A DNA stretch of 64,000 nt from an uncultured Gemmatimonadales bacterium. GTDB lineage: Bacteria; Gemmatimonadota; Gemmatimonadetes; Gemmatimonadales; Gemmatimonadaceae. Both the position numbers and the translations under genes were made by a program. This document shows, piece after piece, positions 9,736 to 24,130 of this stretch (positions are counted from its first letter, which is position 1; the number at the start of each line of letters is the position of its first letter). The notes beneath the pieces are model-generated. The model worked only from the letters and a program-made list of their open reading frames with translations. It did not search any database and was not told where the DNA came from. The stretch is taken from positions 2,240,001 through 2,304,000 of the forward strand of contig OY969695.1 of NCBI GenBank assembly GCA_963701965.1, in the 5' to 3' direction.

Positions 9736-9764
9736 GCGGTAAGCTAAGAGATCGCACGGGAGCG

Positions 9765-10233
9765 GCGGCTTGGCCGCCGCGACAGGCAACCGACAGTCGT
9801 TGTCTCGCTGTGGCGAAGGCCACAGGAGCGCGGCTTGGCCGCCGCGACAGGCAACCGACAGTCGTTGTTCTAGCTGTGGCGAAGGCCACAGGAGCGCGGC
9901 TTGGCCGCCGCGACAGGCAACCGACAGTCGTTGTCTAGCTGTGGCGAAGGCCACAGGAGCGCGGCTTGGCCGCCGCGACAGGCAACCGACAGTCGTTGTT
10001 CTAGCTGTGGCGAAGGCCACAGGAGCGCGGCTTGGCCGCCGCGACAGGCAACCGACAGTCGTTGTTCTAGCTGTGGCGAAGGCCACAGGAGCGCGGCTTG
10101 GCCGCCGCGACAGGCAACCGACAGTCGTTGTTCTAGCTGTGGCGAAGGCCACAGGAGCGCGGCTTGGCCGCCGCGACAGGCAACCGACAGTCGTTGTTCT
10201 AGCTGCGGCGAAGGCCACAGCTAGAACAACGAC
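9765..10233. repeat. tandem array of 7 x 65-66 bp hairpin-rich units
   Basis: Unit GCGGCTTGGCCGCCGCGACAGGCAACCGACAGTCGTTGTTCTAGCTGTGGCGAAGGCCACAGGAGC starts at 9765, 9830, 9896, 9961, 10027, 10093 and 10159. Confidence 0.97.
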
Positions 10234-16809: not shown

Positions 16810-17859
16810 TTACGTCGTCGTAAGCGACGGCGACGCGGGGCAGCCGCTCCATACGGCCGTGACCGTCGTGCCATCGCTGAACTTGATCACCAGCGTACCG
16901 CTCACGACGCTGCCGATATTCGTCGTGCACGTATTGTCGATCACGAGCGGGGTGGGCGTCGACACCGTGAACGCAATGTTCCCGCTTTCAAGTTGGTTAT
17001 TCGCCTGCGGCACACTGATGAAATAGTTCCAACTGCCGTTCAGGCTGAGCGATCCGTTGGGTACGGAGAACGCCTCGGTGATGACGTCGCCGGTATACGT
17101 GTAGGTCGCCGCGAACTTTTCGGTGATGCCGATCGTGTCCGCCGTGCTACCCTCGTGTATCCCGAAGCCCCACGACGCGGTATCGGACTCCGCGATGATG
17201 CCGGGTGTGTTGCTCACGCCGATCGAGCCGTTGATACCCAGCGCGATGCTCGTGTCGGCCGACTCCTTGATCGAGATGCCGAAGTTCTTGAATACTTCCT
17301 CGAAATTGAGGCCGGGGCTGTTCGGCACCGGATCCCACACGCTGATGCTGCCGGTTTCGGTGAGCGATCCCGAGACGCAGTCCGACCCGAAGGCGATCAC
17401 GATGGTGTCCGTCGGGATGCCGAGCGAGTTGTACGTCGGATTGGCGGGGGTGGTGCTGGGACAATCGGTCGGAGTCGACTGCTTGGCGTGCAGTTGCAGT
17501 GACACCTTGGACGGGATCGAGCGGCCCAGAATGTGAGCGAGCGTCGCCGTGCGACGCGGCAGCGTGCGCTGGAAGCCGAAACCGACGAACGGATCGGTGA
17601 AGCCGCTGCTGAAGTCCGCGTTGACAATGTTCTGGACGGAGGACTCGACCTCAATGACGACCGAGCTGTCGAGGGCGGCCTGCTCGGCAGGGCTCAGCGA
17701 TTTGAACGAGTCGAGATTTTTCGGCGACGTGGCGCTGTCACTGCCACCGCAGGCGGCGAGGGTGAATACCGCGGTAATACCGGCGAACAGCGTGGCCATC
17801 GTGTACGGACGACGCATGCGGACAGGCTCCAGGGTTGGGAAGGTTGGCATAGGGCGCAT
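16810..17859 (-). CDS. hypothetical Ser/Thr-rich lipoprotein (start uncertain)
   Basis: Lipobox LAAC-GGSDS; beta-rich C-terminal half; four further Cys residues. Confidence 0.75.
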   Translation of the reverse strand: MRPMPTFPTLEPVRMRRPYTMATLFAGITAVFTLAACGGSDSATSPKNLDSFKSLSPAEQAALDSSVVIEVESSVQNIVNADFSSGFTDPFVGFGFQRTLPRRTATLAHILGRSIPSKVSLQLHAKQSTPTDCPSTTPANPTYNSLGIPTDTIVIAFGSDCVSGSLTETGSISVWDPVPNSPGLNFEEVFKNFGISIKESADTSIALGINGSIGVSNTPGIIAESDTASWGFGIHEGSTADTIGITEKFAATYTYTGDVITEAFSVPNGSLSLNGSWNYFISVPQANNQLESGNIAFTVSTPTPLVIDNTCTTNIGSVVSGTLVIKFSDGTTVTAVWSGCPASPSLTTT

Positions 17860-18047: not shown

Positions 18048-21000
18048 ATGCTCCTCTCGTCCGCTCACGATTCCGTTACACTCGCTCCGATTCTCGCGGC
18101 GCTCCGATTCGCCGCTGCCAGACAGATAGACGCGGACGACCGCGCCCGCTTAGGTCTCGGCGCCCTGGCGAGTGAGGCCTGGGTCGCCCGCGGCGACGGT
18201 GCCCTCCGCGCCCTGATCATCACGCCCCGCGCCGGGATGCCGGCGCGGCATCTGGTTGGCCTCGTCGCCGAGCGCCTGGCGCGCCGCGCGCCACATCTGC
18301 TATGGCTTCTGATCGCGGTGGATAGCGGCGAGGCCGGGGGATCGCTGGCTTTGGCCGCGTGGTCGGCGGACCGCGTGCCGCCGCGCGTCGCCGCCCTCAT
18401 CGTCGACCGCGCCCACGTCGTCGAAAGTGACGCGGATACGATCGTCGCGCTGGAAGCCGCGGCCGCGATCGGTCCAACCGATCCAGACGGCGCGCTGACG
18501 CACACGCGCTGGATCGACATTCTGGGCCGCGAAGGCCTCGGGCGCCGGTTCCACCGCGCGGTCGCGCGGGCGGTCAATGCGCTGGCGGCCGGCAGCGAGG
18601 GACGCGCCGCGGCCAGCGAGCGGCACGAGATCGCCCTCCTGTACACGTGCCGGCTCCTGTTTCTCGCGTTTCTCGAGGCCAAGGGTTGGCTCGACGGAGA
18701 CCGCGCGTTTTTGGGACGCGCATTCGATCGCTGCGTCGCTGGCGCCGGCGGGGTGCACGCGCGCGTGTTGCTGCCGCTTTTCTTCGGCACACTGAACACA
18801 CCGCCGCATCGGCGCGCCGCGCGCGCCCGCGCGTTCGGACGCATCCCTTTTCTCAACGGCGGGTTGTTCGCGCCGGCGCCGGTCGAACGCCGGCGCGGTA
18901 TCCGCTTCACCGATGCCGCGCTCGGCGTGCTCTTTGGCGACGTCCTGCCCCATTTTCGCTTCCGGCCGCACGAGGACCACACCGAGTCGGCGATCGATCC
19001 CGCGATGCTGGGCCGAACGTTCGAGTCGCTCATGGAGACGGTCGCGCGACGGACGAGCGGCACGTATTACACGCCGCGGGCGTTGGTCGACACCGCCGTC
19101 GTCGCCGCCATCGCCCAGTTGTTGACGGGAGACGGGCTCACTGCCGCCGAGGCCGAGGCGTTCGTGCGAGGCGGACCAGTCGCCCACGAGCTCAGCGACG
19201 CAATGCGCGCGCGCCTCGGCTCCGTACGCGTTCTCGATCCCGCGTGCGGCTCAGGTGCGTTTCTGGTGCACGTGCTCGAGACCCTCGCCGCGCTCGCGGC
19301 GCGACTCGGCGACACCCGTCCCCTCGGCGAGTTGCGCGCCGCGATCCTGACGCAGTCGATCTTCGGCGTCGACACGAATCCGACGGCGGTCTGGCTCTGC
19401 GAGCTCCGCTTGTGGCTTTCCGTCGTGATCGAGAGCGAAGTCACAGATCCGCTCGCCGTTTCGCCTCTGCCGAATCTCGACCGCAACGTGCGCGTCGGCA
19501 ATTCCCTCGCGGGCGGCGGCGCGTCATGCACGAACGCCCCGGGCATAGCGCTCCTGCGCCGCCGCTACGTGACGGCGACGGGCACGCGCAAGCGCGCGGT
19601 CGCAATGGCGCTCGATCGCGCCGAGCGGGCAGTGGCCATCGCCCACGTCACCCGCACCTTGCAGCGCGTGCGCGGACAGCGCGCGGATCTCCTGGCGGCC
19701 GGGCGCGGACGTGACTTGTTCGGGCATCACGTGGCGCCACACACCGAGCGGCTCACGGCGTTGCGCACCGAGTCCCGGGCCCTGCGCCGGCAGTTGACGG
19801 CACTGCGGGACGGCGCGGCACTGCCATTCGCCTACGCCGTGCAGTTCGCCGAGGCGGCGCTGGGGTTCGACGCCATCGTCGGCAACCCCCCGTGGGTGCG
19901 GCTGCACAACATCCCGGCGTCGGAACGCGAGCGATTGCGCGCCGGGTTCCGCACGTTCCGCGAGGCGGCCTGGATGCACGGCGCGCGACTGGCGCGCGCC
20001 GGACAGGGCTTCGGCTCGCAGGTCGACCTCGCGGCGCTCTTCGCCGAGCGCGCCGTGTCGCTGTGCCGCCCCGGCGGCGTCATCGCGCTTCTGGTCCCGG
20101 CCAAGCTCTTTCGCGCCCTGGCCGGCGGCGGCTTCCGCGCCCTGCTCCGGCGCGACACGCGGATCACCGCGATCGAGGACTGGTCCGACGCCGAGCCGGC
20201 GTTCGACGCGGCGGTGTACCCCGCGCTCGTCGTCGCGCGTCGCGCCGATCCGGCCGGGACGCGCAATGCGATGACCCGCGTCGCCGTGCATCAGCGCGGC
20301 GGCCGCGCGCGCCGCTGGGTCGCGCCGGTCGATCGGCTGGCACTCGACGCCACGGACGGGTGTCCGTGGGCACTCATTCCGCCCGCGGTGCGCGGGGCAT
20401 TCGACGCGGTCGTCGCCGCCGGCGTGCCAATGCACGAGACGCGGTTCGGCGCGCCATGGCTCGGCGTCAAGTCGGGGCTCAACGCGGCATTCGTGGTCAC
20501 CACGGCCGATGACGGCGAAAACGCCGGTGACCCGGCTAGCGCCAGTGGGATCACCCGGATAGTCGGGCGCGGCGAGCGCGGTGCACCACGGTGTGGCCTG
20601 ATGGAAACGGCGCTCCTCCGCCCGCTCATCCGCGGCGAGACGATCACGCCGTGGGTGGCGCGCGGCCGCGAACGGCTCGTGTGGGCGCACGACGCCGAGG
20701 TCCTGCCCGAACACGCCGCGCGCTGGCTCGCGCCTTGGCGCCATCGTTTGCGGGCCCGGAGCGATACGCGCGGCGGCCGCTGGTGGCGGCTCTTTCGCGC
20801 GGAGAGCGCCGATGCCCGCCACCCGCGCGTCGTCTGGGCCGACATCGGGCGATCGCCGCGCGCCGCGGTGCTCCCGGCCGGCTGCCCGTCGGTCGCTCTC
20901 AATAGCTGCTACCTGGCGCGCTGCCCCGACCTCGGCGATGCGCTGGCATTCGCGGCGCTCCTCAACGGACCGCTGGCCGCGGCCTGGCTCAACGCCATCG

Positions 21001-21233
21001 CCGAGCCCGCGCGCGGCGGCTGGCGCCGCTACCTGGGCTGGACCGTCGGCCTCTTGCCCATTCCCCGCGACTGGCCCCGCGCCCGTCGTCGCTTGTCCGC
21101 GCTGGGCGAGCGCGCGATCGGCGGCGAGATCGTCGGACTCGACGAGCTGTGGGACGCGGCGGTCGACGCCTATCGTCTCCCGCCGGCCGCCGTCGCGCCT
21201 CTGGCCGCGTGGGTCCTGGGCCCGAGTCGCTGA
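18048..21233 (+). CDS. N6-adenine DNA methyltransferase, Eco57I/TaqI (Type IIG-like) architecture
   Basis: IPFLNGGLF, SGTYYTP, VLDPACGSGAFL (motif I), LPNLDRN, FDAIVGNPPW (motif IV), C-terminal TRD-like region. Confidence 0.9.
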   Translation: MLLSSAHDSVTLAPILAALRFAAARQIDADDRARLGLGALASEAWVARGDGALRALIITPRAGMPARHLVGLVAERLARRAPHLLWLLIAVDSGEAGGSLALAAWSADRVPPRVAALIVDRAHVVESDADTIVALEAAAAIGPTDPDGALTHTRWIDILGREGLGRRFHRAVARAVNALAAGSEGRAAASERHEIALLYTCRLLFLAFLEAKGWLDGDRAFLGRAFDRCVAGAGGVHARVLLPLFFGTLNTPPHRRAARARAFGRIPFLNGGLFAPAPVERRRGIRFTDAALGVLFGDVLPHFRFRPHEDHTESAIDPAMLGRTFESLMETVARRTSGTYYTPRALVDTAVVAAIAQLLTGDGLTAAEAEAFVRGGPVAHELSDAMRARLGSVRVLDPACGSGAFLVHVLETLAALAARLGDTRPLGELRAAILTQSIFGVDTNPTAVWLCELRLWLSVVIESEVTDPLAVSPLPNLDRNVRVGNSLAGGGASCTNAPGIALLRRRYVTATGTRKRAVAMALDRAERAVAIAHVTRTLQRVRGQRADLLAAGRGRDLFGHHVAPHTERLTALRTESRALRRQLTALRDGAALPFAYAVQFAEAALGFDAIVGNPPWVRLHNIPASERERLRAGFRTFREAAWMHGARLARAGQGFGSQVDLAALFAERAVSLCRPGGVIALLVPAKLFRALAGGGFRALLRRDTRITAIEDWSDAEPAFDAAVYPALVVARRADPAGTRNAMTRVAVHQRGGRARRWVAPVDRLALDATDGCPWALIPPAVRGAFDAVVAAGVPMHETRFGAPWLGVKSGLNAAFVVTTADDGENAGDPASASGITRIVGRGERGAPRCGLMETALLRPLIRGETITPWVARGRERLVWAHDAEVLPEHAARWLAPWRHRLRARSDTRGGRWWRLFRAESADARHPRVVWADIGRSPRAAVLPAGCPSVALNSCYLARCPDLGDALAFAALLNGPLAAAWLNAIAEPARGGWRRYLGWTVGLLPIPRDWPRARRRLSALGERAIGGEIVGLDELWDAAVDAYRLPPAAVAPLAAWVLGPSR

Positions 21234-23452
21234 TCACCACGCGCGCCGCGTTAGCGCGCGTGTGGCTCGGGGACGCGGTTGCTGTCCCTATCCAGCTCGG
21301 CGCGATCACGCTCCATCCCCACCAAGCCTCCGCCGTCGCGCGCCTGGAGCGGGCCCTGGCCGAATTCGGCGGCGCGCTGCTCGCCGACGAGACAGGACTG
21401 GGCAAGACGTACGTGGCCGCCGCCCTCATCGCCAGGGCCCGGCGCCCGCTGGTCATCGCGCCCGCCGGGCTCCGCGCGATGTGGCACCAGGCTTTGACGG
21501 CCAGCGGCACGCACGCCACCGTCCACTCGGTCGAGGCCTTGAGTCGCGGCCGGCTGCCGGAAGCTGGGTGCCAGGATCCCGGCGCAGCCGGGATCAGTCC
21601 AACCGACCCCGGATCTCGCGACGCGGAGCGTGGGCGAGATCTCGTCGTGGTCGACGAGGCCCATCACTTCCGGAACCCGCACACCCGCCGCTACGCAGCC
21701 CTCTCGGCGCTCGCCATCGGCGCCCGCGTCCTCCTGCTGTCAGCGACGCCCGTCCACAACCGGCGACGCGATCTCATCGCGCTCCTGGCGCTCTTTCTGG
21801 GCGCCCAGGCGGCCGACGAGACGACGCGGGGACGGGTCATCGTGCGCCGCCTGCACACCGCGGAGACGCGGCCGCGCGTGGATCCCACGCGGTGGTTGAC
21901 CGTTCCCCACGACGACGCAACGCTGGACGCGATATTGGCCCTGCCACCGCCGGTGCCGCCGAGCGACGGCGGCAGCGCCGGCGCGCTCGTGGCTCTCGGT
22001 CTCATCCGCCAGTGGGCATCGAGCAGCGCCGCCCTGCGCGCCGCATTGCGCCGGCGCCTGGAGCGCGCCGGCGCACTAGCCTCCGCGCTCGAATGCGGGC
22101 GGCATCCCACCGATCGCGATATCCGCGGTTGGTGTCTGGGCGACGGCGCCGTCCAGCTCGCCTTTCCCGAGCTGCTCATTCCCCAGCCGACCATGGAGGC
22201 GGGCGCGTTGCTCTCCGCCGTGCGCGCGCACGAAGCGGCCGTCGCCCAGTTGCTGCGCGACGTGCGCGACCGCCCTGATCCCGACATCGCGCGCGGCGCG
22301 CGGTTGCGCGCGATCATTGCGCGACACCCCGGCCAGAAGATCGTGGCGTTCTCCGTCTTCGAGGACACGGTGCGGGCCCTGGCGCGTCGTCTGGCGCGCG
22401 ACGCCCGCGTGTGCGCCCTGGGCAGCCGCGGCGGTGTCGTCGCCAATGGAACGCTGACGCGCGCCGCCGCGATCGCGCGTTTCGCACCACTCGGCACCGG
22501 CGCCGCCGACGCGATTGATGTATTGCTCGCGACCGACCTGCTGAGCGAGGGCGTCAACCTGCAGGATGCCTCCGTCATCGTGCACCTCGATCTCCCGTGG
22601 ACACCCGCGCGCATCGAACAGCGCATCGGTCGCGCGGCACGGCTCGGGTCGCCGCATGCGTGCGTCACCGTGTATGCGATGGCGCCGCCCGTCGCGGTCG
22701 AACGATGTCTCGGCGTGCAGCGCCGCCTCGAGGAAAAGCTTCGCCACGCCGCGCGCGGCCTCGGAACGAGCGGCCTGATCGTGCCGCGCGCACTGGACGT
22801 GACGTTCGACATGCGCGCAACGTGCGAACGGTGGCTTGCCGCCGGCGGTCAGCGAGAGTGCCAGGCAGGCTATCCGTGGGCCGCCATTCGCGCGCCGCGC
22901 ACCGGATATCTCGCCGCCGTCCGCGCCGGCGGTGTCCCGTCGCTCGTGGTCGATCTCGGCGACGGCCCAACAGACGATACGGATGCGGTGGCCCGCGCCG
23001 TATCGCTGGCCGATGGGCCGGTCCTAACGGCGCCGGCGCGCCCCGAGGGCACCGAGCGGGCGGCACGAGCCTGGGGCGCGCGGCGGTGCGCCGCCCGCGA
23101 CGCCGGCACGCTCGCCTCCGACGACCCGCGGCGCGCCGCAAGGCGGATCGCGCGGCGGATCGCGCGGGCTATTCGGCGCGCCCCCGCGCACCGGCGTCCG
23201 ATCGTCGCCGCGTTGGCCGCCCGCGCGCGCCGCGCGCTTGCGCCGGCCGGTGCCGGCACCGAGCGCGCCCTCGCCGCGCTCGTGGACGCCGCGCTCGCCG
23301 ACGAAGCCTGGCTCACCGCCGTCGCGGCACTCGCCCGCGCGCCACATCCCACCACCGCCACCGGTGGTGCGCAAGACGATGTGACCGTGCTCGCGCTGCT
23401 GCTGTTTCGCGCCGCGCCGTCGGAGTCGCGGGAGTGTCGGCCAGGGCCTTGA
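21230..23452 (+). CDS. SNF2-like superfamily 2 helicase (start uncertain)
   Basis: LHPHQ, LLADETGLGKT, VVVDEAHH, LLSATP, ATDLLSEGVNLQ, QRIGRAAR. Confidence 0.9.
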   Translation: MITTRAALARVWLGDAVAVPIQLGAITLHPHQASAVARLERALAEFGGALLADETGLGKTYVAAALIARARRPLVIAPAGLRAMWHQALTASGTHATVHSVEALSRGRLPEAGCQDPGAAGISPTDPGSRDAERGRDLVVVDEAHHFRNPHTRRYAALSALAIGARVLLLSATPVHNRRRDLIALLALFLGAQAADETTRGRVIVRRLHTAETRPRVDPTRWLTVPHDDATLDAILALPPPVPPSDGGSAGALVALGLIRQWASSSAALRAALRRRLERAGALASALECGRHPTDRDIRGWCLGDGAVQLAFPELLIPQPTMEAGALLSAVRAHEAAVAQLLRDVRDRPDPDIARGARLRAIIARHPGQKIVAFSVFEDTVRALARRLARDARVCALGSRGGVVANGTLTRAAAIARFAPLGTGAADAIDVLLATDLLSEGVNLQDASVIVHLDLPWTPARIEQRIGRAARLGSPHACVTVYAMAPPVAVERCLGVQRRLEEKLRHAARGLGTSGLIVPRALDVTFDMRATCERWLAAGGQRECQAGYPWAAIRAPRTGYLAAVRAGGVPSLVVDLGDGPTDDTDAVARAVSLADGPVLTAPARPEGTERAARAWGARRCAARDAGTLASDDPRRAARRIARRIARAIRRAPAHRRPIVAALAARARRALAPAGAGTERALAALVDAALADEAWLTAVAALARAPHPTTATGGAQDDVTVLALLLFRAAPSESRECRPGP

Positions 23453-23479: not shown

Positions 23480-23485
23480 GTGCCC

Positions 23486-24130
23486 ATGCCGGCAGTCCTC
23501 ATGCAAACCGCGGTCGCGCTCCTCACCTACGCCTACGGCGCGAATTGGACGGCGGGACGCGCCCAGCGCGATATGTTGATGTTCGAGTATTACAGCGGCT
23601 GGGCCCACGGCGACGAGTACGTCTATCTCGAGACCCAGAACGTCGCGACGCACACCAATGGGTCGACCGTCGGCACCGGCGAAACCACACCCTACGCCGA
23701 AGTGCATGCCCGACTTGGCGGCGCCGTCGACGGGGGACCCATCCGCGGGCTGTACGTCGCCAACCAAATCGACGCGGGCCAAGGATACATTGTCCTCTTG
23801 TCCGGCGCCGGCATCCGGTGGGGCGGAGGGTTCCAGACGGACCTGTACCTCCGCTATGACCCCGGTCTGGCGAAGCCGACGTGGCAGGCGACCACGTACG
23901 GCGAATGGGCGTTCCGTATCGGACCTGTTCATGTGCGATACGGTGGGTATATCAAGGCCGTGGGATCCGAAGGGTCGTCGGTGACCTTCGTAGTAAGCGA
24001 TACGCGACTCGTGTGGGAGCCGGTTCGGCATCTGGGGGCCGGGGTCGCGCTGCGGCTGTGGCGCAACGATTCTGGTGTCCGGGGGATTGATCAGATGGTG
24101 CCCGAGGCCATCCTCCAATGGAGGTTCTAG
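23486..24130 (+). CDS. outer-membrane beta-barrel, Tsx/OmpK-like channel
   Basis: Alternating aromatic beta strands, FEYYSGW..GD.YVY, C-terminal QWRF (BAM-type terminal Phe). Confidence 0.6.
   Translation: MPAVLMQTAVALLTYAYGANWTAGRAQRDMLMFEYYSGWAHGDEYVYLETQNVATHTNGSTVGTGETTPYAEVHARLGGAVDGGPIRGLYVANQIDAGQGYIVLLSGAGIRWGGGFQTDLYLRYDPGLAKPTWQATTYGEWAFRIGPVHVRYGGYIKAVGSEGSSVTFVVSDTRLVWEPVRHLGAGVALRLWRNDSGVRGIDQMVPEAILQWRF

Follow-up and report, generated by a model that had tools for sequence, protein, structure and literature searches.

The 64,000-nucleotide window analyzed here, positions 2,240,001 to 2,304,000 of the forward strand of contig OY969695.1 (assembly GCA_963701965.1, an uncultured Gemmatimonadales bacterium), encodes a DNA methyltransferase and, directly downstream on the same strand, an SNF2-like ATPase. 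Sequence comparisons indicate that this pair is likely the remnant of a mobile restriction system – a methylase plus a phospholipase D (PLD) nuclease joined to an SNF2 motor – from which the nuclease has been lost. We lean toward the reading that the pair is now a domesticated, probably fork-associated, chromosome-marking module.

The first gene (18048–21233, + strand) encodes a 1061-amino-acid N6-methyladenine (m6A) methyltransferase that has an Eco57I/Type IIG-like architecture according to Pfam (matches to Eco57I, E 2e-18, N6_Mtase and MmeI_Mtase) and Foldseek. The second (21230–23452, + strand) encodes a 740-amino-acid superfamily 2 (SF2) ATPase, hereafter the helicase, with Pfam matches to SNF2-rel_dom, Helicase_C and ResIII. 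The two open reading frames (ORFs) overlap by four bases, CTGA, and the start codon of the helicase is either the CTG of the overlap, about 25 amino acids ahead of the Q motif, or a GTG at 21149. Neither protein matched the PLD, HNH or PD-(D/E)xK families in Pfam at E values up to 1. A profile made from the PLD domains of relatives had a best match of only E 0.064 in the whole genome, and this profile search found no PLD gene beside the pair or elsewhere. The initial annotation had described a methyltransferase of about 1060 amino acids with intact motifs I and IV abutting a helicase of about 740 amino acids with intact motifs, no nuclease motif in either, and no defense or mobility genes nearby. 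The ORFs, motifs and Pfam matches agree with the first of these observations; the Pfam result, together with a nuclease-like N-terminal fold that has no conserved catalytic residues (see below), agrees with the second; and by their translations and Pfam matches, none of the window neighbors is a defense or mobility gene.

The distribution of the methyltransferase was determined with a profile in 250 genomes of the phylum that were at least 90% complete, a tally that includes the unpublished genome G012. Genomes were grouped into families (f1, f2, etc.), which were assigned to the Gemmatimonadota by inference, as the named homologues are from Gemmatimonadaceae or Gemmatimonadota; f1–f3 make up the order. 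The methyltransferase was found in 158 of the 170 genomes of the order (51 of 53 in f1, 104 of 114 in f2, and 3 of 3 in f3). Beyond f1–f5, the profile gave generic matches only, above E 1e-29. In a sample of the class, searched with broader profiles and strict thresholds, the methyltransferase was in 25 of 27 (f1), 46 of 49 (f2), 1 of 1 (f3), 3 of 6 (f4) and 10 of 12 (f5) genomes, and the helicase in 25 of 27, 41 of 49, 1 of 1, 3 of 6 and 10 of 12, respectively. Neither gene was found in any of the 155 genomes of f6, f7, f8, f9 and f13. Nearly all genomes with the methyltransferase have a single copy. G225 has two: the neighborhood is present twice, in near-identical form (G225:C23:24110–27328 and G225:C13:552863–556075, loci L026 and L027), with DAAC in motif I of both methyltransferases, due to either a duplication or a mixture of strains.

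Gene order is conserved as well. In all of 40 loci, retrieved for their long contigs and spread across families, the helicase is downstream of the methyltransferase on the same strand; one of these loci ends at a contig edge, and one has a 1-kb insert. In genome G101 the two genes are 12 kb apart. Three apparent methyltransferase-helicase fusions (P0123–P0125) were dismissed by eye as frameshift read-throughs. The families that recur in the flanks (24 representatives scanned) are Nudix, rhodanese, HAD, glycosyltransferase, extracytoplasmic function (ECF) sigma/anti-sigma, DUF4097 and transporters, all of a housekeeping kind.

Trees of both proteins were made with FastTree; the alignments excluded L022, L023, L026 and L027 (A2) and L027, L029, L049 and L056 (A3), and both also excluded frameshifted or cut copies. 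The helicase tree sets each of f1, f2 and f3 apart as one side of a branch, with support of 100, 92 and 100, and the methyltransferase tree has the same family groups, though support for f1 is weak (0.62). No plasmid match exceeded 31% identity among the 25 matches listed, and a family member was found in one of 79 viral-contig loci, at the end of the contig. This locus (L227, IMGVR_UViG_3300003315_000001; GC content 69%), the sole contig in the viral collection with a methyltransferase and helicase of the family type, is possibly the host flank of a provirus. Distribution, synteny and trees together fit a vertically inherited chromosomal locus and not a defense island. Near-universal, single-copy, largely vertically inherited and with no cognate nuclease found, the methyltransferase in these respects resembles a lineage-wide orphan epigenetic methyltransferase, and a domesticated epigenetic methyltransferase-translocase, one of two options in the initial annotation, fits this syntenic and largely vertical distribution.

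The second line of evidence is the conservation of the predicted target-recognition domain (20430–21077, + strand), which is in the TaqI_C-like position – TaqI_C matches the same region of plasmid relatives. Identity in this domain was compared with identity in the catalytic domain for 220 random pairs of family methyltransferases and 110 pairs of outgroup methyltransferases. In the family, mean identity of the recognition domain was 40, 51 and 56% at catalytic identities of 45, 55 and 64%, while in the outgroup, with only 4 and 5 pairs in the upper two bins, it was 30, 32 and 45% at 43, 55 and 64%. The minimum in the 60–70% bin was 51% in the family (18 pairs) and 22% in the outgroup (5 pairs). 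The recognition domain therefore diverges in step with the core, unlike that of the mobile relatives, which points to a single inherited target and suggests that the methyltransferase would recognize one fixed sequence.

The ancestry of the pair is apparent from these mobile relatives. The plasmids that best match the methyltransferase are those that best match the helicase, and all five of the helicases beside the best plasmid methyltransferases have a PLDc_2 domain at the N-terminus. PF13091 was found in 114 of the best 120 longer relatives of the helicase core. PLD-SNF2 genes are spread across many phyla and plasmids (examples are NZ_CP117770, NZ_LR882948, NZ_CP086385 and NZ_CP016750), and most adjoin a methyltransferase. 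These partner methyltransferases are the sister group of the family in the methyltransferase tree; in the helicase tree, too, the family and its mobile relatives are sister groups. Like the mobile pairs, the pair described here has homologous, adjacent and linked methyltransferase and helicase genes, including the non-catalytic methyltransferase N-terminus and the helicase core. It differs in that their helicases have a PLD with an HxK active site, absent here by Pfam and the genome-wide PLD profile, and in that they have scattered hosts and variable recognition domains, versus a PLD that is dead or gone and a near-core chromosomal location.

On the lactococcal plasmid NZ_CP016750 (L063, 5131–13624), a PLD-SNF2 gene and methyltransferase are accompanied by an invertase and by a spare TaqI_C recognition domain in inverted orientation, an arrangement that by its gene content is one of switchable specificity in mobile relatives. 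Table 3 of PMC9881135 lists two Eco57I/Cj0031-like Type II restriction-modification loci with PLD-SNF2 as invertible. One genome with the core pair, G007, has a second SNF2 helicase match (G007:C2:732968–734746); P0234, a PLD-SNF2 protein that probably belongs to the same genome, suggests that a mobile PLD system is present beside the domesticated pair.

Traces of the nuclease remain in the relatives of the order. In f4, four loci (L058, L138, L210 and L216) have a gene of about 180 amino acids between the methyltransferase and the helicase, while L043, also of f4, does not. The product aligns with the active PLD profile (hhalign, 98.4%, E 5e-15), but both catalytic sites have been replaced, HxK by WTPD and GSSN by GAHY. 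This dead PLD has 427 homologues and no Pfam family. Copies include L058:8495–9025 (− strand), L138:7487–8029 (+ strand) and L198:8290–8838 (+ strand), the last one of the f7 loci L198–L215. It was found in 5 of 6 f4 genomes and 27 of 68 f7 genomes, and was absent from f1–f3 (0 of 77), f5 (0 of 12), f6 (0 of 64) and the source genome. In f7 the gene is solitary, with no pair within about 8 kb in 17 loci, and frequently has thymidine kinase, phosphodiesterase or AAA-TPR genes in its vicinity. At the N-terminus, the f5 helicases are extended by about 170 amino acids without HxK. This extension has a weak match to the dead PLD (E 0.004, 8%) and none to the active PLD profile, which makes it a lead to a probably degenerate, fused PLD.

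With two unrelated SNF2 proteins as the root of the helicase tree, the earliest branches are f5 and f4, and f1, f2 and f3 form a clade (0.99), though the root is weak. A dead, separate PLD in basal relatives suggests that the nuclease was inactivated before it was lost. On the simplest history for these sequences, the nuclease would first have been inactivated, would then have split off or decayed, and would finally have been lost.

The methyltransferase itself appears intact. In motif I, DPACGSG (amino acids 397–403; 19236–19256, + strand), which binds S-adenosylmethionine, GSG is conserved in all 39 rows of the alignment and DP[AS] in 37, with DAA in two copies from one genome. The catalytic motif IV, NPPW (amino acids 613–616; 19884–19895, + strand), is kept in all 39 family rows and in all seven of f5. 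The best structural matches by Foldseek were CamA (top), M.BseCI, BrxX, MmeI, BpuSI and DrdV. The order of domains is an N-terminal nuclease-like domain, a helical domain, a gamma-class methyltransferase and a recognition domain; Pfam, alignment and Foldseek agree on a gamma-class m6A methyltransferase with a C-terminal recognition domain.

The N-terminal domain (amino acids 1–165; 18048–18542, + strand) was modeled with a pLDDT of 94 and has a predicted restriction-nuclease-like fold without conserved catalytic residues. With VIA-align it aligned with residues 4–142 of DrdV (Z 5.2, root-mean-square deviation 3.9 over 112) and 27–179 of BpuSI (Z 4.9, 4.0 over 119); these Z scores are middling and level with those of unrelated rows, and the top row was an unrelated protein (Z 5.9). 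Foldseek with this domain found no match at E 0.001, and PDB sequence searches with profiles of the N- and C-termini produced no meaningful match. L159 is the sole invariant residue in 38 rows, and neither catalytic strand has a conserved acidic or lysine residue in 38–39 rows. As modeled, the methyltransferase N-terminus is similar, at these middling scores, to the nuclease fold of Type IIG enzymes, with the catalytic residues missing.

The N-terminal domains of the family and of the mobile partner methyltransferases are homologous (hhalign, 93.9%), and by eye the partners have no E-x-K and no conserved acidic or lysine residue there either. As this N-terminus appears non-catalytic in the pair and the partners alike, we infer that the PLD was probably the sole nuclease of the parent system.

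The helicase has no N-terminal PLD nuclease of the type found in its relatives, and its ATPase motifs are conserved. These are Walker A, GLGKT (amino acids 56–60; 21395–21409, + strand), in which G56, G58 and K59 are invariant in all 33 sequences; Walker B, DEAH (142–145; 21653–21664, + strand), with D142, E143 and H145 invariant in 33 of 33; SAT at 171–173; TDLLSEG; and motif VI, QRIGRAAR (464–471; 22619–22642, + strand), with Q464, R465, G467 and R468 invariant in 33 of 33. Across 31 rows, none of the C-terminal 215 amino acids is invariant, and this region gave only weak leads (RapA_C at 0.84; hhalign to the C-termini of PLD-SNF2 proteins, 0.8%).

A helical insert between the ATPase lobes (amino acids 228–352) has a loop, QLAFPEL (22154–22174, + strand), that is a candidate sliding-clamp motif. 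Q309 in this loop is invariant in 33 of 33 helicases, and the pattern Q-[LIMVT]-x-[LFIM]-x(0-2)-[FLW] was found in 33 of 36, against a background of 112 in 2960 windows of 60 amino acids; the f5 helicases have QLAFF in seven of seven. Known clamp motifs, as given in PMC8034640, include QLSFF, QMSLL, DLPLF and QTLLLP, and the Q-L motif of the helicase resembles these in sequence. Most of the PLD relatives examined have an acidic loop at this position. The methyltransferase has a second, similar candidate: DLFG (19713–19724, + strand), with a core like that of a clamp motif, at the tip of a long hairpin formed by helices 512–553 and 566–587 of the structure model. The pattern [DTSN]L[FW][GADS] is present at this tip in 34 of 35 rows.

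From these features a mechanism can be proposed. The methyltransferase would methylate adenine at one fixed site of the host chromosome, probably on one strand, as Type IIG/IIL enzymes do. The SNF2 ATPase, which presumably used to serve as the motor delivering the PLD nuclease, may now load, move or release the methyltransferase on double-stranded DNA. A tether to the sliding clamp would be provided by the Q-L motif of the helicase, and perhaps also by the DLF tip of the methyltransferase, allowing newly made DNA to be re-marked behind the replication fork. The full proposal – a so far undescribed kind of lineage-wide epigenetic system of the Gemmatimonadales and two neighboring families, in which a former restriction machine, an m6A methylase with an SNF2 motor on the clamp, marks a fixed site behind the fork – is a tentative one.

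Several observations weigh against a chromosome-marking role or the evidence for it. The methyltransferase had no match in 12 of the 170 genomes of the order, and two of these 12, which are 99–100% complete (G113 and G115), have neither gene; as five families and some genomes of the order are without the pair, it is not universally essential. Frameshifts were found in 3 of the 40 helicases and 1 of the 40 methyltransferases, possibly from assembly error. The f4 family is placed differently in the methyltransferase and helicase trees, and the root dividing the family from the PLD-SNF2 helicases is weak (0.75–0.81). The outgroup comparison of recognition domains is thin in its upper bins, as noted, and no k-mer of 4–8 bases was outstanding as a lineage mark in the source genome. 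One PLD-bearing subgroup has a QLDLW-like motif in the same loop (55 of 115), so the clamp-like motif may predate domestication, and four outgroup methyltransferases have Q-x-x-L tips.

Finally, no methylome, expression or knockout data on the pair were found, and no sequencing runs are listed for the locus. There was no occurrence of ‘Gemmat’ in six supplements of PMC4752239 and no mention of ‘Gemmatimonad-’ in the main text of PMC12839542. PMC8919816 reports two marine Gemmatimonadetes bins with neither motifs nor methyltransferase genes. A search of titles in the open-access literature found no published description of this methyltransferase and SNF2 pair; another turned up papers on CglI/NgoAVII and on MANTIS.

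The pair shares features with several known systems. Class I DISARM (defense island system associated with restriction-modification; DrmD with DrmMI) also has an SNF2 helicase adjoining an N6-adenine methyltransferase, and there are weak profile matches. The link to DISARM made in the initial annotation is not supported: DrmD has a cut-off of 610 bits and the helicase reached 118, a second score was 87 bits against 950, PF09369 (DUF1998, drmB) was not found anywhere in the 95%-complete genome, and no PLD gene (drmC) is nearby. The gene order of Class I DISARM is also opposite to that of the pair. No syntenic genes of DISARM or of the bacteriophage exclusion (BREX) system were found in the relatives. 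PglX models of BREX scored 19–39 bits against 400–900, and no BREX genes were found near the pair (brxC was not searched for genome-wide). The sole PglZ domain in the genome (G000:C1:3923241–3925007) is fused behind a receiver-like domain, 1.66 Mb from the pair. The Type IIG/IIL enzymes DrdV, BpuSI and MmeI and the BREX proteins BrxX/PglX have the same order of domains as the methyltransferase, which differs in an N-terminus without catalytic residues, an obligatory SNF2 neighbor and no BREX genes nearby. PADLOC matches of the pair were partial, and the match of the helicase to the NCBIfam family of PLD anti-phage helicases was weak (87 bits against 1100).

MANTIS (Gao_RL) is similar in that an adenine methyltransferase is paired with an SF2 ATPase. 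It is reported to comprise a methyltransferase, MtsC, and a PLD-SF2 effector, MtsD, and to require an AAA+ ATPase and a co-regulator (bioRxiv 10.64898/2026.09.23.753747). Unlike MANTIS as so described, the pair was not seen to have an AAA+ ATPase, a co-regulator or a PLD effector site. No recurring neighbor like MtsA or MtsB was found in the 40 two-gene loci (24 flank proteins scanned).

The lineage-wide orphan methyltransferases Dam, CcrM and CamA resemble the pair in being conserved, vertically inherited, nuclease-free adenine methyltransferases, and CamA was the top structural match. They are single small enzymes, whereas about 1060 amino acids and an ATP motor are found here.

The leading alternative, which we consider rather unlikely, is a nuclease-free exclusion defense. 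The methyltransferase would mark self DNA and stay bound at unmarked sites of an invader, where the SNF2 motor would block replication or transcription without cutting. Ancestry from a restriction-type pair, fold kinship with BrxX and MmeI, and the continued coupling of the two enzymes, which an orphan marker does not need, are all consistent with this, and the clamp motif could engage the fork of an invader too. Defense systems under phage pressure, however, are not expected to be near-universal at a fixed site with an unswapped recognition domain; about 93% of the order has the pair, at a site that is conserved, its recognition domain has no sign of swapping, and neither its neighbors nor the single viral locus suggests a defense role. 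Of the minimal exclusion module put forward in the initial annotation, the two coupled genes without a nuclease stand, while the distribution and the conserved recognition domain speak against exclusion as their function.

It is less probable still that the pair provides a mark and motor to a nuclease encoded elsewhere, such as the mismatch-repair protein MutL or an unlinked restriction nuclease. The MutL of the genome has a DQHSAHER motif and a clamp-type motif, QRLLFP, and the dead PLD, separate in f4 and present even without the pair in f7, shows that the parts can act unlinked. Weighing against this are the absence of any such PLD, active or dead, from the source genome, the lack of a recurring nuclease family in the flanks, and the fact that MutL proteins with the endonuclease motif usually operate without methylation.

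The chance that the pair is a neutral relic in slow decay, retained by chance or hitch-hiking, appears slight: the frameshifts in 4 of 40 loci, a repeat within the helicase and the loss from five families would fit, but the catalytic motifs are invariant at overall identities of 27–50% and gene order is held across five families. A standard Type IIG enzyme with an active but diverged N-terminal nuclease and an accessory helicase is hardly credible, since the alignments to DrdV and BpuSI, an Atlas lead to MmeI_N (0.87) and a best PADLOC match to REase_MTase_IIG, spanning only amino acids 384–1016, are set against catalytic strands and mobile partners without the required residues and a helicase C-terminus with none invariant, and the cryptic active nuclease that the initial annotation had named beforehand as its refutation was not found.

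Some 0.39 Mb separate the locus from dnaN and from the skew minimum. By their translations and Pfam matches, or those of their orthologues, the window neighbors are Nudix, rhodanese, an unnamed ORF, MerR, a small ORF, HAD, ECF sigma/anti-sigma and DUF4097. The immediate neighbors, 16810–17859 (− strand) and 23480–24130 (+ strand), have no Pfam family and are absent beside most relatives. GC content at third codon positions is 0.86 and 0.84 for the pair and 0.84 and 0.79 for two neighbors. A dispersed repeat of 68 bases (21574–21641, + strand) falls within the helicase gene, where the encoded loop is variable, and leaves the frame intact; it has 42 further blastn matches in the genome, the best eight at 87–97% identity. 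Elsewhere in the window, at about 9755–10220, there are some seven tandem units of 66 bases with 97–98% identity, adjoining a gene that ends at 10221.

Conserved orphan methylases such as Dam, CcrM and CamA are thought to derive from restriction systems, and to our knowledge the intermediate stages of such an origin have rarely been seen. Among the relatives here, some have an active PLD, some a separate PLD that is dead and some a fused one that is probably degenerate, while others have lost it altogether; the motor was retained. New here are the steps of PLD inactivation and then loss, the non-catalytic Type IIG-like N-terminus, the co-diverging recognition domain and the Q-L motif. Were the pair a defense system, it would be an unusually fixed and nuclease-free one. 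If it marks the chromosome, it would be a candidate for the master epigenetic mark of an abundant, poorly studied soil lineage, with a bacterial SNF2 motor in the service of a DNA methylase; and if it also rides the clamp, it would be an equivalent of Dam or CcrM with a dedicated ATP-driven remodeler.

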